Shown: piece by piece, positions 10,472-20,200 of the stretch
How positions within the stretch are numbered: the stretch's first letter is position 1
How the letters are laid out: each line of letters begins with the position of its first letter
Assembly: GCA_043825855.1 (NCBI GenBank)
Contig: JBDRRJ010000009.1
Coordinates: forward strand, 17,866 to 81,865
Direction of reading: 5' to 3'
From: Pseudomonadota bacterium
GTDB taxonomy: Bacteria; Desulfobacterota; UBA8473
DNA length: 64,000 bases
Translations under genes and position numbers: made by a program
Notes under the pieces: model-generated
Seen by the model: the letters and a program-made list of their open reading frames with translations, nothing else
Told to the model about the DNA's origin: nothing
Databases searched by the model: none

Positions 10472-12736
10472 TTATGAATAAGTCCCATATTTCCTCACCA
10501 TCTCCCAATACTCTCTCTGCCCTTCAGTCATTCTATTTTCATAATCGAGTTTAAAAGCCTGGTCAGATTCGTTTAGCTCACCGCCTGCGATTTCGTAGTC
10601 CACACAGAATGTGTATCTGGTCAGATCGTTCAGGAAGTATGTTGGTCTAACAGGCAGGGGTTTTATTCTGATGTTGTTTTTGCTTTTTTCTGCCTGAGCC
10701 TCCAGCTCTGCCATCTCTGCCTTCAGCTCTTCATCGGTCCATTCTCTGTTCAGCTCATACTGTTCGTCTGCCCTTTTCTTTTTATCCCTGCCTATAAGTG
10801 CGGCTGCTTTTTCTACAGATGATATTTTGGAGTGCTGTATAAAGTCTGGAATATTTGATGTGAGCTGTCTGTATTCTGCGATGCATTCCTTCCGGCGGCG
10901 GGCTTTCTCTTCAATCTTTTTCTCTGCTATGCCCTTGTTTTTCATGCTTGAGTATTCCACTAACTCTGCCTGGCAGAGATATTCACCCTTCGTGAATACA
11001 AGCAGCCATTCGGGATCCATCGGGTCATACCTGATCTCAACCTTTTCGCCTTTTTCAAGGTTGATGGGTATTAGAGCATCGTGCTCATACAGCTCGTTCC
11101 TGAATGTTATCCTGCCCCTGTCCACGCTCCTGGCATCCCTGGCAAGGAATATGAGGTCGGTGGTATCATTGTTTAGATATGTCGGCTGCCAGCCGTCCTG
11201 ACAGCACATCTTCAGGCAGTCCATAGGGGTTATTTCTCTGGGTTTTGGTCTCCATACCCATTCTTTTCTCACTCCCCTGTGGGCTTTAGTTTTGTTGTAG
11301 AAGTCCATTGCTTTATAAAGAATTACCCTGAACTCGCTGAAGGTGAGAAGTTTTCCGGCTTTTGCAAGTTTTTCGATCTCCTTCTGATCGACTTCCTGTT
11401 CTTCCTGGGATGCCGTCAGACGTTTCACGTATCCGGGAACCATGAACGTATTTCTTAATAACTGTTCAAATATGCTGAACGTCCCCTCGATCATTTTGGC
11501 TTTAGCATTTCGGACGATAGCCTTTCTGTGCATTCCGGGGATAATCACGCATGGATTGATCTCTTCAGGGTCTATGTCAACAGAACAGGCAGGGATATCT
11601 ATAACATTCTCGGCACTCATATGCAGTGATCGGATGTCTTTCATTATGCTCTGGATGTATTTTGATTCTTCCGGTTTGCCGTGGTCTGTGTAGATGGATC
11701 CAAATGCCCCGAATATCTTTACCCCGATACGCAGTGCCAGACCCATTAGCTGGCTGTCATACTTTCTGTCGACTGCGCCGCCATAGAAACACCGTGTCCT
11801 GAGATCCTGCCAGAAATATCCCTCTGGTCTGAATACCTCTCCGGTGTCGTCATCCACCACCCAGAAATCAAACCTATGCTGATCCCCGACGAGGATCTCA
11901 AACGGAGCGAGGTCGGAATAATTTCTGAGAACAGGTGGCAGGGTGTTGTCCAGGGCCCTGACTCCACCTCTTTGCAGGGCAAGAAGCTGAGGGGTGACCC
12001 TCTTCTTGAGCCACCAGAGTGCGCTCTCGTATCCGCCTATATCCCAGCCCCTCTTAGTTGCCTCTTCCTGCAGGATGGCATAAAGTTTCTTTTTGCCGTC
12101 TTTGGCGAGTTTTCTGTGTTCCTTCTTTAAACATAGTCCAACCCACCAGTCTATAGCCTCCGGAGTCCACGTCTTTGCCTGCTTGGGCTTGCTGTGTTTC
12201 AGCCCGGCAAGTCCGCCTTTTTCGTATTTCTGTATTTTTCTATATATAGTAGATATAGTGGTGTCGTGTTTTAGAGCTACAGCCTCGATCCACTCTCTCT
12301 TTTTCCATCCTCTGGGTACGTTGAGTGCTTCCTGAACTATCCGGCTCGATTTCTGCACTCCTTCGTCATGCAGTATATTTATATTTATAGCTGTGTTGCC
12401 TGACCATGCATCTGATCCGCCTGTGGAGGCTGATGACATCGACATGTCAGGGAGATATTTATTTGCAACCTCAATGGCTGCCTCCGGGGCAAGGGATGAT
12501 ATGAGAAGAGGGGATACGTCGTGTTCGGTGACGTATCTTTTTTGTGCATCAGGGGAAAGACATGAGAGGGCTATTTTGGTGATTACACCATTTTTACCCC
12601 CTCCATTCGGTGCAGGTACCTGTGATACTTTTTTGTAATAACCAGAGTTAATCCTTCTCTGAATTGTCTTTTCTGAGCAATTTTCGATGTCCACCACCTG
12701 TTTTTGAGTTAAATAGATGTCATCCATACGCAACAC
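10472..12736 (-). CDS. MuA-like DDE transposase (N-terminal DNA-binding domains, rve core, Mu transposase C-terminal)
   Basis: 754 aa sitting between Ner and B. It has HTH-like N-terminal domains and a DDE integrase-like core (…VGDQHRFDFWVVDD…). Confidence 0.85.
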   Translation of the reverse strand: MLRMDDIYLTQKQVVDIENCSEKTIQRRINSGYYKKVSQVPAPNGGGKNGVITKIALSCLSPDAQKRYVTEHDVSPLLISSLAPEAAIEVANKYLPDMSMSSASTGGSDAWSGNTAININILHDEGVQKSSRIVQEALNVPRGWKKREWIEAVALKHDTTISTIYRKIQKYEKGGLAGLKHSKPKQAKTWTPEAIDWWVGLCLKKEHRKLAKDGKKKLYAILQEEATKRGWDIGGYESALWWLKKRVTPQLLALQRGGVRALDNTLPPVLRNYSDLAPFEILVGDQHRFDFWVVDDDTGEVFRPEGYFWQDLRTRCFYGGAVDRKYDSQLMGLALRIGVKIFGAFGSIYTDHGKPEESKYIQSIMKDIRSLHMSAENVIDIPACSVDIDPEEINPCVIIPGMHRKAIVRNAKAKMIEGTFSIFEQLLRNTFMVPGYVKRLTASQEEQEVDQKEIEKLAKAGKLLTFSEFRVILYKAMDFYNKTKAHRGVRKEWVWRPKPREITPMDCLKMCCQDGWQPTYLNNDTTDLIFLARDARSVDRGRITFRNELYEHDALIPINLEKGEKVEIRYDPMDPEWLLVFTKGEYLCQAELVEYSSMKNKGIAEKKIEEKARRRKECIAEYRQLTSNIPDFIQHSKISSVEKAAALIGRDKKKRADEQYELNREWTDEELKAEMAELEAQAEKSKNNIRIKPLPVRPTYFLNDLTRYTFCVDYEIAGGELNESDQAFKLDYENRMTEGQREYWEMVRKYGTYS

Positions 12737-12835: not shown

Positions 12836-13318
12836 TCATACTTCCTTCAATCCATCGAGAAGGGCTCTTCTCTTTTTGATCCCCTTATTGATTTTATCCC
12901 TCTGTTCCAGGAGTTTCTGTATGTCTGCCCTCAACGCTTCTTTGCCGGGCAGCACAAATACACCAGCTTTCATGCCCAGAAAATCAAGGAGCCCGGAGCT
13001 CTCCACGGAAATACAGAATGCAGGAGCAAAAATAGCCGGAAAGCGGTGGAGCTCTTTGCTCTCCGCAGTCCAGCTATCCAACATACTCTTGGTGATCTCA
13101 GTACCTGTAAGCTCGCTCATCCGGCCTGCTACGTGATACCGAGAGTATGGACATTTTTTGAGTTCGGCTGAAATCAATTCCCTGAATTCGATGTCTATGT
13201 TAAGGGAGCCTGCTTTGGGTAAACTATCCTCTTCCTGAGCCTTTTTCAGTATGTCAAAGAGGCTGAGTTGCTTGTCGTTGTTTTTGTCTATTCTTTTTCG
13301 TAACTTAGACATTGACAT
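12836..13318 (-). CDS. Hypothetical early protein between ner and A
   Basis: 160-aa basic protein with no recognised domain. Confidence 0.35.
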   Translation of the reverse strand: MSMSKLRKRIDKNNDKQLSLFDILKKAQEEDSLPKAGSLNIDIEFRELISAELKKCPYSRYHVAGRMSELTGTEITKSMLDSWTAESKELHRFPAIFAPAFCISVESSGLLDFLGMKAGVFVLPGKEALRADIQKLLEQRDKINKGIKKRRALLDGLKEV

Positions 13319-13415
13319 TGCTCAAAAAAAATTATAGAGTGCCCCTAACAGCCAGGACAATGATCAACCGCGCCCAGTATGATCGTATTGTCCCTTTTTG
13401 GCTGTTAGGGGGTTT

Positions 13416-13616
13416 TTATGCTGCTTTCTTAGGTGAAAAGAGCTTATCAATAGGGACCCCAAGCTCTCTGGCAATAGCCTCCTGGGTTGGCCTGGGATGT
13501 TTGCGCCCATAATATGTCTGAGATGTCCATGTCCTAGACCTGCCTATACGGATGGAAAGTTCGGTTATCGTTATTTCCTTTTCGATTAAAAGATGCCGTT
13601 TATCCTTAATGTTCAT
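13416..13616 (-). CDS. Ner-like DNA-binding protein (Mu Ner / Cro analogue)
   Basis: 66 aa; …TELSIRIGRSRTWTSQTYYGRKHPRPTQEAIARELGVPIDKLF aligns with Mu Ner …LSRQFGYAPTTLANALERHWPKGEQIIANALETKPEVIW. It is divergent from the c repressor. Confidence 0.55.
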   Translation of the reverse strand: MNIKDKRHLLIEKEITITELSIRIGRSRTWTSQTYYGRKHPRPTQEAIARELGVPIDKLFSPKKAA

Positions 13617-13747
13617 TTGTTGTCCTCTTAATAATTAACGTTTGACAACCACCAAAACCAATATAATCGCATAGCAATCAAAATAATTTAACTACCATTG
13701 GAGATAGAATACAAAAAGTCAGAAATGACAATAAGTTATCTCAACGT
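13617..13747. promoter_or_regulatory. Divergent c/ner switch region. Candidate plus-strand promoter with TTGACA (13642-13647) and TATAAT (13662-13667), although the spacer is only 14 nt.
   Basis: 131-bp AT-rich interval between divergent repressor genes. The hexamers were read directly; the spacing is suboptimal. Confidence 0.35.
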
Positions 13748-14344
13748 ATGTTTGCGGAAAACATTGGTATATCTCAGAGCTATCTATCGGAGCTTGAACA
13801 GAACAAAAAACCACCATCGGAACCAATTCTACTGGCCATAGAATATCGCTATGCTATACCAAAAGACTGGCTTCTCACTGGTGAAGGGGAGAAGGAAAAA
13901 ATTTCTGGCCCGCCATCCATAGCTGAACCCAGGGCGCCTTATATCCCTCCCATACCTGGTGTGATCCCCTTAAGAATAATCCCTGTTCTCGGCAGGGTTC
14001 CTGCAGGCTTTCCGGATCAGATACCGGAACAGGAAATCATAGAATATATAAAATGCCCCGATGGTCAATCAGGCTCTTATGCGCTGATCGTAAAGGGCGA
14101 AAACATGTCGCCGACAATAAAGGACGGTGACTATGTATTATTTATAAATAACGGTGATATCAAAAACGGGGATGTGATAGTTGTGAATAATGAGTGGGGT
14201 GATTCGATGATAAAACGTTATAGAGAGAAAGAAGGGGATATCCTGCTAACCAGCGACAACCCGGAATATCCAAGTTATAAGCCAAATGAGCAATACAGAA
14301 TCATAGGGAAAGTTGTAGGAGCTTGGCGGAATATAAAGGTGTAA
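13697..14344 (+). CDS. c repressor, CI/LexA-type: XRE-family HTH followed by an S24 peptidase (autocleavage) domain. The likely start is the non-ATG codon ATT at 13697; the ORF-track start at ATG 13748 truncates HTH helix 1.
   Basis: In-frame upstream translation gives TIGDRIQKVRNDNKLSQRMFAENIGISQSYLSELEQNKK, a complete XRE HTH. The C-terminus, LIVKGENMSPTIKDGDYVLFINNGDIKNGDVIVV…MIKRY, is LexA/S24-like. The only in-frame candidate start between the stop at 13664 and the ATG at 13748 is ATT. Confidence 0.75.
   Translation: MGDRIQKVRNDNKLSQRMFAENIGISQSYLSELEQNKKPPSEPILLAIEYRYAIPKDWLLTGEGEKEKISGPPSIAEPRAPYIPPIPGVIPLRIIPVLGRVPAGFPDQIPEQEIIEYIKCPDGQSGSYALIVKGENMSPTIKDGDYVLFINNGDIKNGDVIVVNNEWGDSMIKRYREKEGDILLTSDNPEYPSYKPNEQYRIIGKVVGAWRNIKV
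14281..14342. repeat. Copy 1 of a ~62-bp imperfect direct repeat, formed by the 3-prime end of the c repressor gene. Copy 2 is at 17171..17233.
   Basis: gccaaatgagcaatacagaatcatagggaaagttgtaggagcttggcggaatataaaggtgta compared with gccaaacgagcattattattatcataggaaaagttgtaggggcttggcggaatataaaagtgta. The last 42 nt match at 39 of 42 positions, and the upstream similarity crosses a reading-frame shift. Confidence 0.7.
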
Positions 14345-14365
14345 AGATTAAAAGAGGGATCAAAA

Positions 14366-14797
14366 ATGAAATCACTAGTTATTCAGTGGCTCGTTGGACT
14401 TACAATCTCCCTGGGTATTGGTCAAATAGTCACTTGGGGTTTCTTGAAATGCTTGCGATCGTGCATCAAAATACCGGAGGGTATATTTTCAAGCGAAAGA
14501 TTTAAGGGCGTTCCTCCTTGGCTCATTGGAACAATTGAACGGATATTTTTTACATTTATCGTTGCGTTTGATATTTCTGGATTCGCAACAGCAATGATCT
14601 TATGGATTGCGACCAAAATGCTTTCAGGTTGGCACCGGGCAGTGCCAGGTATTAGAGTTCGACTGAATGATGAAGAATATGAACTGAATCACAGAGACAT
14701 TGTACCGGTTTCTTTTTCTTCTCTTCTTGGAAATTTGGTTTCTATGTTTTTTGCTTTGATAGGCGGATTAATCTGTCAGGGGAGGATATGGTGGTAA
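14366..14797 (+). CDS. Four-TM membrane protein encoded immediately downstream of the c repressor and probably co-transcribed with it (RexB-like position and topology)
   Basis: 143 aa with four hydrophobic segments. An RBS (aagaggga) lies 8 nt upstream, and the gene starts only 21 bp after the repressor stop. Confidence 0.5.
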   Translation: MKSLVIQWLVGLTISLGIGQIVTWGFLKCLRSCIKIPEGIFSSERFKGVPPWLIGTIERIFFTFIVAFDISGFATAMILWIATKMLSGWHRAVPGIRVRLNDEEYELNHRDIVPVSFSSLLGNLVSMFFALIGGLICQGRIWW

Positions 14798-14996
14798 AAA
14801 TACACAAGCATTTAATTGAGTGGTTAATATGCAAAAGTTGGTGTTAGTTGGTACTATATAATTGTTTGTTCGACTCGAAGAAGAGGAATATATTATGACT
14901 ATCAGCACAAAGTTTTCGAGGAAATTAATTGATTTACCTTCAGTTTATGGAATATAAGGAATGCTGTCAATGTGGATAACTGAAAGGAGGAAGGCT

Positions 14997-15344
14997 ATGG
15001 TTTTGAAAGAGATATTAGAAAAAATTAGGCTGGTCGATATTCAAACTACTGTAAAGGACGTATTCAAGAGCAAACAGTTTGGATTAGTAAATATAGAAAA
15101 AAATATTTACAACCTCGACATGTCTGACGAGAAGGCAAAAAATTTTATTGCCATAAAAGTAGATGAAGCTCTTGAAAGAAAAGTAAAAGAAGCGGCAATA
15201 AAGCGTTTAGAGCCGATCGGTGACGCTATAGATTTATTGTCGGCATCTACTGCCACTTCAATCGTTGCTTCAACTATGACGACCGCCACTTTAGACATAA
15301 TTGCTCCTTTACCTAAAATAACTATTAAGGGTCATGAAGAATAA
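14997..15344 (+). CDS. Hypothetical cargo protein. Start moved from the ORF-track position to the ATG at 14997, which has a strong RBS (aaaggaggaagg).
   Basis: 115 aa (MVLKEILEKIR…) with no recognised domain. Confidence 0.4.
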   Translation: MVLKEILEKIRLVDIQTTVKDVFKSKQFGLVNIEKNIYNLDMSDEKAKNFIAIKVDEALERKVKEAAIKRLEPIGDAIDLLSASTATSIVASTMTTATLDIIAPLPKITIKGHEE

Positions 15345-15438
15345 TAAATACCGGCTACGTTTCGGCTACGAAAAATAGTTAAAAGTGTCTTTTTTGTGTC
15401 GTTCAATTTAAATGTTATAGGTCATAAGGAGACTAATT

Positions 15439-15722
15439 ATGGGAAAGAAAAGCGGAAGTTTTGATGAAAAAGGTATTGAAGAATTAGCCAAAGATAAACC
15501 CGTCGTATACAAAATTGAAGACGACAAAGGCAATACCCTCTATGCAGGTGTTGCAAAAAGAGGGAGAGTTGAAGAACGCATCAAAGAACATTTGCCCGGG
15601 GTCCTGTACGTGGTGGGGTGAAAGTTCGAATTCAGCAAAAACCGAGTATTATGGACGCGGAAAAAGCCGAGGCTAGAATAATAAAGAAACAACAACCACC
15701 TCAGAATAAGAAAGGCAAGTGA
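15439..15722 (+). pseudogene. Small GIY-YIG-family nuclease gene interrupted by a frameshift in a G4 run (15615-15618). Either a pseudogene, a programmed frameshift or a sequencing error.
   Basis: Frame 1 gives …PVVYKIEDDKGNTLYAGVAKRGRVEERIKEHLPGVLYVVG* (GIY-YIG motifs VYKI…LYAGVA…R…EH). Frame 3, read from 15615, continues …GVKVRIQQKPSIMDAEKAEARIIKKQQPPQNKKGK*, which matches the GIY-YIG C-terminal helix and the E/N residues. Confidence 0.45.
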
Positions 15723-15913
15723 CTTATAACAAATCACTTCACCGCAACCCAACTGCACTTCGCTTCGGTGAGTGTAGCGATAGGCCTTCTTATCAAAACG
15801 CCTATTGCTCCACTATTCGAGAAGGTCCATATATAGACCAGTGAGAAAGAAACAAATTACAACTGGGAAAATACAAATAATCAAAATAGTTAATATTGAT
15901 TAATCCATAGTGA

Positions 15914-16414
15914 ATGTCTATGCGGGATAGAATTTGGAATAATTTATACAATATTAAGTTCAAGGCTTTATATACTTGTGAATGTTCTAAAATAGCCGAG
16001 AGGGTTGGACGTTTTTTCTCTTTATTTATAGCTCTTGCCTCTGCTGGCAGTATTGCAACATGGGCAGTTTGGAAAGAAATACCTTCTGTGTGGGCATCTA
16101 TTATTGCAGTTTCCCAGGTATTACATATCACAAAGCATTACATCCCCTTTATCAAAAATGACAAATCGCTTCTTGAGTTGTCGTACGAATTTGAATCACT
16201 CTATATTGAATTTGAAAAACTTTGGTACTCCCTCGAAAATGAAAAAATAACCACTGACGAAGCAGAACAAAAATTTTATGAACTGCGTAACCAAGCATTG
16301 AATATTGAAAAAAATCATAAAGAAATCCATTGCCCAGATTTTAAGAGTTGGAAAGAAAAAGTTAATGAGGCAACAGAGAGTGCTATCAAAATCCATTTTT
16401 CAAAAGGAGATTAA
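15914..16414 (+). CDS. Two-TM membrane protein with a C-terminal helical domain, SLATT-like effector architecture
   Basis: 166 aa with two TM helices (FFSLFIALASAGSIATWAVW and IPSVWASIIAVSQVLHI) followed by a helical, charged C-terminal region. The size and topology match SLATT-domain effectors. Confidence 0.4.
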   Translation: MSMRDRIWNNLYNIKFKALYTCECSKIAERVGRFFSLFIALASAGSIATWAVWKEIPSVWASIIAVSQVLHITKHYIPFIKNDKSLLELSYEFESLYIEFEKLWYSLENEKITTDEAEQKFYELRNQALNIEKNHKEIHCPDFKSWKEKVNEATESAIKIHFSKGD

Positions 16415-16416
16415 TC

Positions 16417-16548
16417 ATGGCAAAAGGAAAACCTTCTCCCCCACCACCTAGGCCAAAACCAAATCGAACTTCGCCGCCGCCTTTTACGCATAGTGTACCA
16501 GATGCTCCAAAAATTCCACCACCTCCCCCACCCAAAAAAGGAAAATAA
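16417..16548 (+). CDS. Proline-rich basic micropeptide of 43 aa, translationally coupled to the 2-TM gene. It is below the ORF-track length cutoff.
   Basis: MAKGKPSPPPPRPKPNRTSPPPFTHSVPDAPKIPPPPPPKKGK. The ATG sits 2 nt after the upstream stop, with an RBS (aaaaggaga) 7 nt upstream. The peptide contains PPPP, PPP and PPPPPP runs. Confidence 0.4.
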   Translation: MAKGKPSPPPPRPKPNRTSPPPFTHSVPDAPKIPPPPPPKKGK

Positions 16549-17170
16549 TGGCATAACAATTGGAGTAACTTGAGACCGGGAAGCCCGGGATTCTTGCGAT
16601 CATGTCAGTGGCGGCGCACATTACTTCGAACAAAGGTGGTATAAGAATATATTGTTCAAAAATGTAAAAAGTAGTACAAAAATGTTCATTAGTAACCTAT
16701 CCATATCAATTCTTCCCATCCCCAAACAATAGATTACACAAAAAAATTGATTTATTTTCTATGGCTTCGTAAAAAGTCTATCTGCGGCTTTGTGCCGAAT
16801 CCTCCGTCGTTGCGGCATATTCCTAAGTACGCGCCTCACTCCTCAGGATTTGTGCGCCTTGTATCCGGGGTTTTATGCTTATTCTAAGGAGACTTCGGCA
16901 TGTTTTATGCGGTATATTATATATTGTGTTAGTCCGCTCGTCTCACTCAATGGCCCCGGAGAATTCGGGGCACGGAAGTTATAGGACAGGTAACTCTCAT
17001 GCAATGGTCAGACAAATCAGCCGTCGCGTTAGGAAGGGGATGTCGTACGACCGATTCACGTCTGTCTCAACTATGCTCCGCTACTGTCAGCGGGATGGCC
17101 CTGCTGGCGCTGGCCAGCTGGCAGATGAATGCGCTGTTCTTGTCCGGACAGTGGGCTACCTATATTTTAA

Positions 17171-17233
17171 GCCAAACGAGCATTATTATTATCATAGGAA
17201 AAGTTGTAGGGGCTTGGCGGAATATAAAAGTGT
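17171..17233. repeat. Copy 2 of the ~62-bp direct repeat, a remnant of a repressor 3-prime end, at the far side of the cargo cassette
   Basis: See 14281..14342. Only the final 13 codons (IGKVVGAWRNIKV) of ORF 16999..17247 resemble the repressor. Confidence 0.7.
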
Positions 17234-17287
17234 ATGAAAAAAAGTAATATAATTTACTTCTCAGTTTGAAGCGAAAAGGGAAATAAT

Positions 17288-20200
17288 ATGGCAGAAAAGA
17301 CTAAAAAAATTTGGCTATATGTGCTCGCTTTAGTTGCAATATTGATACTCGCTTTAGTTGTAACGTTAATCATTACAGGGGGGGCGCGACGAATACTTGT
17401 ATCCAGGGACAAAGTCGCGGTAGATCAAAGTACAGTATCGAATAATAAGCGTGCGGATATCTCTAGTGGAATTATCCATGCAAGCGAGCTTGCTTTTGCC
17501 CGTCAACCTCACAAAGGTTCCAGCGACCGTGAGGTGCGTGTCGGATTATACCAGAACAAACCAAAGATTTTCACAAGTGAGACAGGTCAGCCCTCGGGTT
17601 TATTCATTGAAATCCTCGAAGAGATTGCCCGAAGAGAGAGATGGAAATTGATTTATGTACCGGGTGAATGGTCTGAGTGTTTACGCGCTCTAGAAGAGGG
17701 TAGGATTGATTTGATGCCGGATGTCGCCTTTTCGCCGGAACGAGACGAGAAATATGATTTCCACGAAGAGGAGGTTATCGAAAGCTGGTCACAACTATAT
17801 ACCAACAAAGATAAACCTGTGAAGAATTTTTCCGACCTGAACGGACTGCGGCTTGCCCTGCTCAAAGGTTCAATTCAACAAAAGATTTTAGAAGAGATGA
17901 TAAAAGGGTTCGGCTATAAGGTTTCTATTGTTGAGGTTCATTCCTTCGAAGAAGCCTTTACCCATGCAGCCAATGGCGCTGTCGATGTGGTTGTTTCAAA
18001 CCACCTTTTTGGAGACTATTTTTATCAGGAATACGGGCTGGTAAAGACAACAATTATTTTCAACCCGGTGCCATTATATTTTGCAACAGCCTCTGGCGCC
18101 AACCATGATCTACTTGAGGCTATTGACCATAATTTACGGATAATGAAATCTGAACCCGGCTCTGTTTTCTATAAGATTTTGGCGCATTGGATGGAAAGAC
18201 CACCAAAGGTGGTTGTGCCGCGGTATCTCGTTCGAATCATGGGCGGCATCGGCGGGTGCCTCGCCTTGGCTTTCGTGTTCATTTTACTGCTTCGCAGTCA
18301 GGTGAAGATAAAAACAAGACATCTGTCCCAGACTAATGAAACGTTGCGCAAAAGCGAAGAAAAATATCGCACCCACTTTGAAAACGTATCTGATGTTATC
18401 TTCTCATTCGATAGGGAGTTCAGAATTCTCAACATATCACCCTCCCTGGAACGAATTTTGGGATACAAGCCTGAAGAATTCATCGGCAAGTCTTTTGCAG
18501 AGCTAAATATTCTATCACCCGAATACCTTGAGAAGGCCTTCTCCGATGGAATGCGAGTATTTGCCGGCGAGAATGTAGATTTATTAAACTATGAATTTAT
18601 TGCCAGGGATGGAACGAAAAAATATGTGGAAATTAGCGGTGGCCCTTTAATCCGCGACGGTCAGGTTGTAGCAGTGATTTCCGTCGCAAGGGACGTCACT
18701 GAGCGCAAACGGGCGGATGAACGTTTGGACGTGGAGGCCAAACGAGCCAAAATCCTTTTGGAATTATACCTCAAGGCCCCAAGCTTATCCGACAAAGAAC
18801 TCTACGATTATGTTCTGGACAAAGCAGTCGATCTCACGGGAAGCGCAATCGGATTTTTCCATCTGGTGGATGAAGATCAGAAGACGATTATTCTCACCAC
18901 ATGGAACTCTGAAGCCTTCAAGGGCTGTACCGCTGCTTATGACACTCACTATTCCGTTGAAGAGGCAGGAAACTGGGTAGATTGTGTGCGCCAGGGGAAA
19001 CCGATTATATACAACGATTTTTCTGTTTCCCCAAATCAGAAGGGGCTTCCGGAAGGGCATACACCCTTAAAACGGTTCATGAGCATTCCCGTAATCGAAG
19101 GCGGTAAGATACACTATATTTTTGGTGTGGGTAATAAATCAGGGGTTTATGAGGAACATGATGTTGTTCAGATTCAATTAGTTGCCAATGAACTATCCAA
19201 GATCATAAGGCAACGTAAGGCAGATAGAGCATTAAAAGAGAGTGAGAAGAGATATCGGGGTCTCTTCGATAATGTCTTAGACATGATTCATATCGTGGAC
19301 AAGAATGGAATAATAATTGATGCTAACCCCATAGAACTGAAAACTATGGGGTATACCAGAGATGAATATATCGGGAAGCGTCTGCCAGAGATAGTCCATC
19401 CTGATTTCCAGGAAACAACCAAAGAAAGGTTTGAAAGGATATTAAAAGGGCAAAATATTAAATTATATGAGACCGTTTTGGTAACGAAAGGTAGTGAAAA
19501 AATTTATGTGGAAGTAAACGCTGTTCCTCTGGCAGAGGGTAATGAAATAGTTGGAGCGAGGGAGGTTGTGAGAGACGTCACTGAGCGCAAACAGTTGTTA
19601 GATCAAGTCAAACAGAGATTAGAGCGCTTGGAAGCCCTGCGAGCCATAGACATGGCTATTACCGCTAGCCTCGACATCCGCGTTACCCTTAGCGTATTCT
19701 TGGAACAGGTCATTAATACTTTAGGTGTAGATGCGGCAGATGTCCTCCTTCTTAATACACAAATCCATAATAGGCTTGCATTTGTTGCCGGGCGTGGCTT
19801 TCAGACAACTGCCCTTCGACACACAAATTTACCTATAGGCGCCGGTTATGCGGGCAGGGTTGCCCAGGAAAGGAAAACCTTCTGCATTTCTGACCTGCAA
19901 AAGGAATCGCAGGATTTTTTAAAGCAATCCCCTCAACTCAGTAATGAAGATTTTGTCTCCTACTACGCCACACCACTTATTGCGAAAGGGCAAGTTAGGG
20001 GCGTCCTGGAAGTATTCAACCGCACGCCTCTTAAACCTGAACAGGAATGGCTGGATTTTTTGGAAGCTCTGGCTACACAAGCAGCTATTGCTGTAGATAA
20101 CGCCGAGCTTTTCGATGACCTACAGAAGAGCAACATTGATCTGCTTCATGCCTATGACGACACGTTGGAAGGATGGTCTAAGGCTCTGGATCTGCGCGAT

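Follow-up and report, generated by a model that had tools for sequence, protein, structure and literature searches.

The stretch of DNA analysed here (64,000 nt, referred to as the window) carries on its minus strand a Mu-like transposable prophage, recognized by PHROG matches to a minor head protein, a portal protein, both terminase subunits, an endolysin, a MuB-like protein and a transposase (the latter at 10472-12736). The last ~70 nt of a LexA/S24-type repressor gene (14275-14343) are directly repeated at 17165-17234, with a 44-nt core that is 93% identical. These repeats flank a 2.9-kb accessory block that contains the gene for a two-TM membrane protein followed by an ORF for a proline-rich micropeptide (Table 1). 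The two further cargo genes of the block, encoding proteins of 143 and 127 aa, matched no family and were not found beside the two-gene module in other loci, while the split GIY-YIG nuclease-like gene is probably a pseudogene. Since the repeats bracket the block and a host-type sensor gene follows it, the module can be considered cargo at the repressor end of the prophage; the repeats look like a scar left when a cassette was inserted or exchanged at that end. No convincing gene was found in the ~700 nt 3′ of the micropeptide in the window. A promoter and terminator scan of positions 15700-16800 gave nothing above shuffled expectation, and an Rfam scan of 13000-18000 returned just two matches, both at chance level.

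Table 1. Features at and around the micropeptide gene in the window, with corresponding features in related loci (L numbers)
Feature	Position	Strand	Remarks
LexA/S24-type repressor gene	13748-14344	+	
Cargo gene, 143-aa multi-TM membrane protein	14366-14797		accessory block
Cargo gene, 127-aa protein	14961-15344		accessory block
GIY-YIG nuclease-like gene, frameshifted into ORFs of 60 and 34 aa	15439-15722		accessory block
Two-TM membrane protein gene, distantly SLATT-like (164 aa from MRDRIW)	15920..16414	+	ORF listing, homologue starts, AlphaFold2
Shine-Dalgarno AGGAG of the micropeptide	16405..16409	+	read from the sequence; 7 nt 5′ of the ATG, within the end of the two-TM CDS
Micropeptide gene (43 aa, basic, polyproline)	16417..16548 (stop included)	+	ORF listing, in-frame conservation, pN/pS
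Core motif V27-P28-D-A-P-K-I-P34-PPPPP39 of the micropeptide	16495..16533	+	alignment A4
14-nt element AATGGCATAACAAT	16547..16560	+	overlaps the peptide stop; conserved 3′ edge of the module
PAS/GAF/HD-GYP sensor gene, host-type	from 17288		after the accessory block
Tandem peptide copies in relatives	L004 4417-4700; L006 3705-3950; L105 3414-3838		
AATGGCATAACAAT element in relatives	L021 2881-2975; L003 2691-2760; L001 1436		

The micropeptide ORF starts with an ATG at 16417 and ends with a TAA at 16546-16548; its product is MAKGKPSPPPPRPKPNRTSPPPFTHSVPDAPKIPPPPPPKKGK. The stop codon of the two-TM gene (TAA, 16412-16414) is separated from this ATG by the dinucleotide TC. Proline makes up 42% of the micropeptide, the runner-up among the 600 ORFs of at least 30 aa in the window reaching 23%. 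The prolines form runs of four (residues 8-11), three (20-22) and six (34-39), and the only run of at least five prolines in any frame of the window lies in this ORF. Runs of three or more consecutive prolines stall ribosomes in the absence of EF-P, and the window peptide has proline codons in such runs. The DNA of the ORF is 36% C and 13% G, the G+C content of the window being 43%. The outlier status of the ORF in the window, together with the presence of an equivalent ORF in ~95 homologous loci (see below), indicates that it did not arise by chance. The micropeptide had no match in the Pfam, NCBIfam, PHROGs or PADLOC family libraries, and was itself missing from the protein collection searched. 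A first-pass annotation, made from the sequence alone, had given the position, the 43-aa sequence and the 2-nt gap exactly; the good ribosome binding site that it reported corresponds to the AGGAG 7 nt before the ATG, and the three proline runs are those that it listed. Its view of the ORF as a real, translationally coupled gene for a basic polyproline peptide, attached to a SLATT-like two-TM gene, is supported by the results below.

The start of the two-TM protein was assigned to MRDRIW, a start of the form MRxRIW being found in 36 of 36 close homologues; an alternative ATG at 15914 would lengthen the protein by two residues. The family is large, with 1223 cluster representatives (50% identity) at E ≤ 1e-3 and 609 at 1e-10. 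In the AlphaFold2 model of the window protein (mean pLDDT 84), a long N-terminal helix is predicted to run into TM1, followed by TM2 and three cytosolic helices. The helices span residues 2-41/45-53, 55-74, 81-106, 112-132 and 142-159, and the models obtained (mean pLDDT 84 and 90) present the SLATT-type architecture of two adjacent TM helices plus a cytosolic helical region. Three tryptophans at the TM hairpin (W48, W51 and W58) are invariant, as are the aromatic residues W6, F14, Y18, Y95 and W102. The PADLOC model RTasSLATT matched the window protein with a sub-threshold E-value of 1.2e-5, the match covering residues 12-150 of the 158-position profile. With the NCBIfam model SLATT_4 (cut-off 55), the window protein reached 9.4 bits and a gut relative 26.6 bits (E = 4.6e-6). 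None of the curated SLATT models (Pfam SLATT_1-6, NCBIfam SLATT_1/4) was matched above its cut-off, and the window protein, like all 32 relatives examined, had no Pfam match. A search of the PDB found no relative by sequence or fold, and neither the window protein nor the gut protein had a match in the phage collection. From this sub-threshold similarity, ‘distantly SLATT-like’ appears a fair label, which falls short of membership in a curated SLATT family.

Two-TM effectors of conflict systems containing a SLATT domain were reportedly described by Burroughs et al. in 2015. The protein studied here shares with SLATT effectors the small two-TM hairpin with a cytosolic helical region, the location in defence islands and mobile elements, and the weak HMM similarity mentioned above. 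It differs from SLATT systems in that no curated model is matched above cut-off, in that a nucleotide-generating enzyme or reverse transcriptase does not accompany it, and in that the coupled gene encodes a ~44-aa polyproline peptide. Inspection of ~100 loci revealed no SMODS, SLOG, reverse transcriptase or other nucleotide-signal enzyme conserved beside the two-TM gene, whose sole constant partner is the micropeptide. SLATT-5 is the partner of the DRT10/UG17 reverse transcriptase (bioRxiv 10.64898/2026.04.29.721553). The SLATT-RT arrangement in that preprint resembles the present one in its close coupling of the stop codon to the start codon of the gene immediately downstream; the preprint, which deals with SLATT effectors, makes no mention of proline.

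The loci examined comprised four first contigs, 7 genome loci, 80 metagenome loci, three viral loci and further contigs. In the first four contigs, in which the two-TM protein is 56-79% identical to that of the window, a small Pro-rich ORF began no more than 5 nt from the two-TM stop in all four cases. The scan was then counted over the 95 loci having at least 120 nt 3′ of the two-TM gene, and a small ORF (23-70 aa) on the same strand was present directly after the two-TM gene in 94 of them. Of these, 88 contained a strict Pro run and six a degenerate version of the motif, such as NEAYIPDFEFTPPTPDTDTNNC or SYTPDFKFTPDPPVIDGE; in the odd locus, L073, the two-TM gene is interrupted by an insertion. 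The pairing persists where the two-TM protein is as little as 27% identical, and it spans Acidobacteriota, Planctomycetota, Smithella, Lentisphaerae, Pseudomonadota and Bacteroidota, the pair being present in ~100 unrelated genomes that range from sediment bacteria to human-gut Bacteroidota. The first-pass annotation had proposed to look for conserved small ORFs after SLATT-like genes, and had made its reading depend on conservation of the ORF in frame in homologous cassettes; both points were borne out by these loci. Human-gut contigs carry the pair with a Bacteroidota-type peptide such as MSKISNTEKPSRIGSTLRNGSSIPDYKYTPPPPPPPLENKE. Plasmid carriers were found in Chondrinema litorale WSW3-B12 (NZ_CP111068), where the peptide is the RefSeq ‘hypothetical protein’ WP_284689915.1, and in Methylobacterium oryzae (pMOC4); since these are cultured carriers, the module is directly testable. 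The pairing also held in the reverse direction: starting from matches to the peptide profile, the gene directly upstream encoded a 162-167-aa member of the two-TM family, and the one such gene checked by hhalign (in L106) gave a probability of 99.8%. The peptide-profile search itself returned 14 small proteins among the matches listed, and no fusions to other domains were seen among them.

Several lines of evidence identify the 43-residue Pro-rich ORF as a genuine small-protein gene. The pN/pS ratio in the sense frame was 0.36, 0.20 and 0.49 in three clades, in each case the lowest of the six frames; the second-lowest value corresponded, as expected, to the antisense frame that shares its wobble positions. 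The sense frame stays open through indels in all 64 of the divergent peptides. The frame of the peptide relative to that of the two-TM gene is 0, +1 or -1 depending on the locus, which makes the peptide an independent ORF. This variation, plus the fact that each peptide has its own ATG, excludes that the two-TM protein is simply extended by frameshifting or read-through. It could be argued that the region is a C-rich non-coding element, or that the real gene is a glycine-rich ORF on the minus strand (16386-16559), given that the antisense frame is fully open in 47 of the 64 sequences and that, in L003, the gene caller picked a 58-aa minus-strand gene in place of the peptide. However, the other 17 sequences have no open antisense frame, which together with the pN/pS values rules out the antisense ORF as the real gene, while the sense ORF usually has a Shine-Dalgarno sequence and occupies a fixed position after the two-TM stop. 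The chance that the micropeptide ORF is not a gene is considered next to negligible. Gene callers do often overlook the peptide gene or, as in L003, place it on the wrong strand.

Peptide statistics were obtained for 64 unique homologous peptides, with a median length of 44 aa (range 23-70), a median Pro content of 35% and a median net charge of +5. Their genes start with ATG in 63 cases, and the start lies at -11 to +17 nt relative to the two-TM stop in 57. A Shine-Dalgarno sequence of at least 4 nt, spaced 4-10 nt from the start, precedes 45 of the 64. The 19 peptide genes lacking this sequence all occur at 46% identity or less to the two-TM protein of the window (17 of the 19 at 38% or less); as Bacteroidota generally lack Shine-Dalgarno sequences, these genes probably belong to that group. 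The longest Pro run comprises at least five residues in 56 of the 64 peptides, with a maximum of 13, and in 47 it sits 2-7 residues from the stop. In an alignment of 48 peptides (A4), M1, P28 and P34 were invariant and P35-P37 were at least 90% conserved. The common core can be written as [V/I/L]-P-[D/N/S/T]-x4-PPPP(P...), followed by a short, mostly charged tail, and the N-terminal half is variable in both length and sequence. The peptides come in two flavours, ‘VPNIPKPPPPPP’ and ‘IPDFxFTPPPPPP’. PRP or PxP repeats are confined to the former; PRP repeats are present, for example, in L029 and absent from L084-L099 and L077-L080. A few peptides have PP or TPPTP in place of the long Pro run, yet keep a hydrophobic-P-D-F-x-F motif, which suggests that what is conserved in essence is a linear motif of the peptide, as opposed to stalling itself. 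The sequence ‘VPSAP’ found in one subclass resembles viral PSAP late domains, the likeness extending over four residues.

A natural fusion of the two genes was found in L060 (308-907) and in P0187, a cluster of eight sequences. In both, the peptide is the in-frame C-terminal tail (...FNFPPEDPGRKADKLFPPTASVTRLPAVPNIPNPPPPPPRKR) of a 199-aa two-TM protein; the two fusions come from independent sources and are 99% identical. The C-terminal extensions of 15 long, distant two-TM representatives were inspected as well and none was Pro-rich, and in the 190-aa two-TM homologues the extension is N-terminal, not C-terminal. AlphaFold2 modelling of the fusion gave a pLDDT of 90 for the final PPPPPPRKR block and of 60-66 for the preceding 20-residue linker, values that suggest a defined position for the Pro run, bearing in mind that a rigid polyproline stretch may score a high pLDDT without docking. 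Tandem double peptide genes follow a single two-TM gene in L004, L006-L010, L048, L057, L067 and L105; the start of the second copy has been lost in L007 and L049. In L014 (4001-4645; an Acidobacteriota MAG), the two-TM ORF lacks its usual stop and continues for ~50 extra codons, in another frame, across the whole peptide gene. The two-TM gene is broken in two loci: in L020 (4001-4500) by a stop at W6 and a frameshift, the peptide ORF remaining intact, and in L073 (725-1045) by an insertion encoding a transposase-like sequence. In contrast, no locus had a broken peptide gene beside an intact two-TM gene. This asymmetry provides a weak hint as to whether the peptide is an inhibitor or an activator, because it involves two loci and because the two-TM gene is a roughly four times larger mutational target.

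No third gene was conserved with the pair, the downstream genes differing from lineage to lineage or being convergent. Across the loci, the neighbours included the Mu-like prophage, ThsB-TIR with a caspase-like peptidase, transposases, Shedu SduA_C, AbiEii, DUF4238, a Prok-E2/JAB-domain protein with a patatin gene, recA with a ParE toxin-antitoxin pair, dnaN, and conjugative elements with Bacteroidota-type integrases. The lack of a conserved third gene and the variety of these neighbours indicate that the pair is a self-contained mobile unit, often placed in defence islands; it travels with prophages, integron-like cassettes, plasmids and conjugative elements, and beside known defence genes. 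The module follows recA in L006-L010 and dnaN in L013. In the gut clade, which is of the Bacteroidota type (human-gut contigs L097 and L107-L110), it always comes after genes for a 352-aa protein and a 307-aa DnaB_C/RecA-fold ATPase, with a 12-nt gap between the ATPase and two-TM genes; the element also encodes an integrase, a T4SS coupling protein and Thoeris-like TIR genes.

The 14-nt element that marks the 3′ edge of the module does not vary among the window, L001, L002, L003 and L021, the sequence beyond it being divergent. In L021 and L003, DNA folding showed it to be the 5′ arm of an imperfect, attC-like hairpin (ATAAC...GTTAT; z = -3.5 and -5.5, respectively), an attC site being taken as an imperfect hairpin that follows the last gene and has ends resembling RYYYAAC and GTTRRRY. 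In the window the 5′ arm alone survives, and no hairpin is formed (z = -0.6). From the position of the attC-like site after the pair, the module in L003 and L021 appears to be a one-unit integron-type cassette. In L001, the 9-mer that follows the peptide stop as part of this element is also found after a Peptidase_C14 gene.

Taken together, the absence of a third gene, the attC-like site, the fusion and its pLDDT profile, the tandem copies and the members with few prolines favour a partner acting at the protein level. We propose, at a rough probability of 0.5, that the peptide is an obligate small partner subunit that binds, gates and probably restrains the distantly SLATT-like membrane effector, the two genes probably making up a module of a membrane toxin or defence effector and its small regulator. 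The first-pass annotation had listed a partner of the membrane effector as one of three options, and it is this one that fits best with the universal co-occurrence, the in-frame fusion and the tandem duplications. The two genes would be translated in a coupled fashion from one mRNA, and the peptide, having no signal sequence, would remain in the cytoplasm. Its C-terminal hydrophobic-P-[D/N]-x4-polyPro motif, presumably forming a polyproline-II helix, might then dock on the cytosolic helical bundle of the effector that bears W6, F14, Y18, Y95 and W102. The docked peptide would gate the effector and most likely keep it closed, as an antitoxin does; if the supply of peptide failed, or the peptide were displaced, the effector could permeabilize the membrane, as in abortive infection or addiction. 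That the two-TM protein is toxic is assumed from its sub-threshold similarity to SLATT proteins. The restraint of a membrane-permeabilizing effector is suggested by analogy with SLATT effectors and with pairs of the SpoIISA/SpoIISB type. In Bacillus subtilis, SpoIISA is a membrane toxin with a cytosolic domain, neutralized by SpoIISB, a small disordered antitoxin encoded just downstream. The module would share with this pair the gene order (membrane protein first, small unstructured partner second) and, if our proposal holds, the toxin-binding logic. It differs in that no sequence relationship was found, or is expected, and in that SpoIISB is not Pro-rich. As in toxin-antitoxin pairs, the module consists of two adjacent, presumably co-transcribed genes that are mobile as a unit and have no further conserved component.

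As a point against the partner proposal, the extreme and recurrent polyproline runs exceed the needs of a simple binding motif and may indicate a role at the level of translation. With a run of 5-13 prolines, the peptide would rely to an unusual degree on EF-P, and on the general translation capacity of the cell, for its synthesis. A more speculative extension of the partner proposal, to which we give a low probability, is that the peptide acts as a sensor of the translation state for a membrane pore: the peptide could be made only by ribosomes with functional EF-P and unimpaired elongation, and a drop in this capacity, brought about by phage or stress, would stop the supply of peptide and open the SLATT-like channel.

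Four other explanations were considered; in decreasing order of probability, these are a cis-acting stall, a bait or mimic, an inhibitor of the type of the proline-rich antimicrobial peptides (PrAMPs), and the non-coding or antisense reading dealt with above. If the ORF acted mainly in cis, a polyproline stall relieved by EF-P would set the expression of the two-TM gene according to translation status, either by ribosome queuing back to the coupled start or by cleavage or stabilization of the mRNA, and the peptide itself would be functionless. The length of the Pro runs and their proximity to the stop are as expected for such an element, and the conserved residues sit just upstream of the Pro run, as in arrest peptides; the short ORF, its variable N-terminus and the conserved Pro-containing C-terminal motif near the stop are further likenesses to arrest peptides and EF-P-dependent motifs. 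Arrest peptides such as SecM and MifM, or those with the RAPP motif (ApdA, ApdP), lie, however, upstream of the gene they regulate, and many of them (SecM, MifM, VemP) contain a secretion or TM segment. The micropeptide ORF is the last of its module, contains neither type of segment and has no conserved gene downstream that could be regulated. In addition, start codon and Pro run are separated by highly variable distances, some members retain the motif with only PP or TPPTP, and the in-frame fusion and tandem copies better suit a protein product. The regulatory stalling element put forward in the first-pass annotation is weakened by these observations, and we regard this explanation as unlikely, although it is the leading alternative to a partner subunit.

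The peptide might instead be a bait for, or a mimic of, a host or phage protein, its capture or modification by a phage then firing the membrane effector. In line with this idea, conservation is centred on a short linear motif within a peptide that is basic and disordered, the modules are located in defence islands and mobile elements, and the I-P-[D/T]-F of the Bacteroidota-type members is reminiscent of the core I-P-x-F in the C-terminal peptide of FtsZ. This last likeness, however, covers four residues and is missing from the VPNIPKPPPP class, and a peptide that is naturally fused to the two-TM protein is more likely to act close to the effector itself; a bait is accordingly given a small probability, slightly below that of the cis-acting stall. 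A ribosome inhibitor resembling PrAMPs, acting as a toxin or as a self-directed translation blocker, is less probable still. The PrAMPs (oncocin, Bac7, apidaecin) are short, cationic and very Pro-rich, as are the micropeptides; in the sediment clade, PRP or PxP repeats occur in many peptides, together with an N-terminus such as MSDKP or MSNEKP that resembles the VDKP start of oncocin, and the net charge is ~+5. Nevertheless, PrAMPs are secreted by eukaryotes, act on other cells and are defined by PRP or YLPRP-type motifs. Such repeats are not family-wide and do not form the core of the micropeptides, in which the invariant P28 and P34, with the highly conserved P35-P37, belong to a different C-terminal motif (hydrophobic-P-[D/N]-x4-PPPP). 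Moreover, long PPPPPP runs are untypical of PrAMPs, the micropeptides have no signal peptide or export partner, and the genetic tie to a membrane protein would be left unexplained. The resemblance to Bac7, oncocin and apidaecin noted in the first-pass annotation is thus one of composition only, as Bacteroidota-type members such as MSKISNTEKPSRIGSTLRNGSSIPDYKYTPPPPPPPLENKE show by their lack of PRP repeats.

A full-text search of the literature found no paper linking SLATT proteins to Pro-rich or polyproline peptides, or describing the pair, and the remark in the first-pass annotation, that it knew of no described bacterial or phage-encoded peptide of this type, agrees with the literature searched. 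We view the module as a SLATT-like membrane effector with a new type of partner, the pair being undescribed in the literature searched, and see a modest chance of a new sensing principle. Should the peptide gate the effector, the module would be among the smallest toxin-regulator or defence modules known, and would provide a rare case of a positively conserved long polyproline tract in bacteria, as well as a natural handle on EF-P-dependent control. Were the peptide a translation-state sensor, two genes would suffice for immunity or addiction, the ribosome being read directly by means of a polyproline tract; such a system would be minimal yet widespread, present among other places in conjugative elements of human-gut Bacteroidota. 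The work defines a large protein pair whose members have so far been unannotated or annotated just as ‘hypothetical protein’; one gut variant of the peptide alone was found on 899 contigs.
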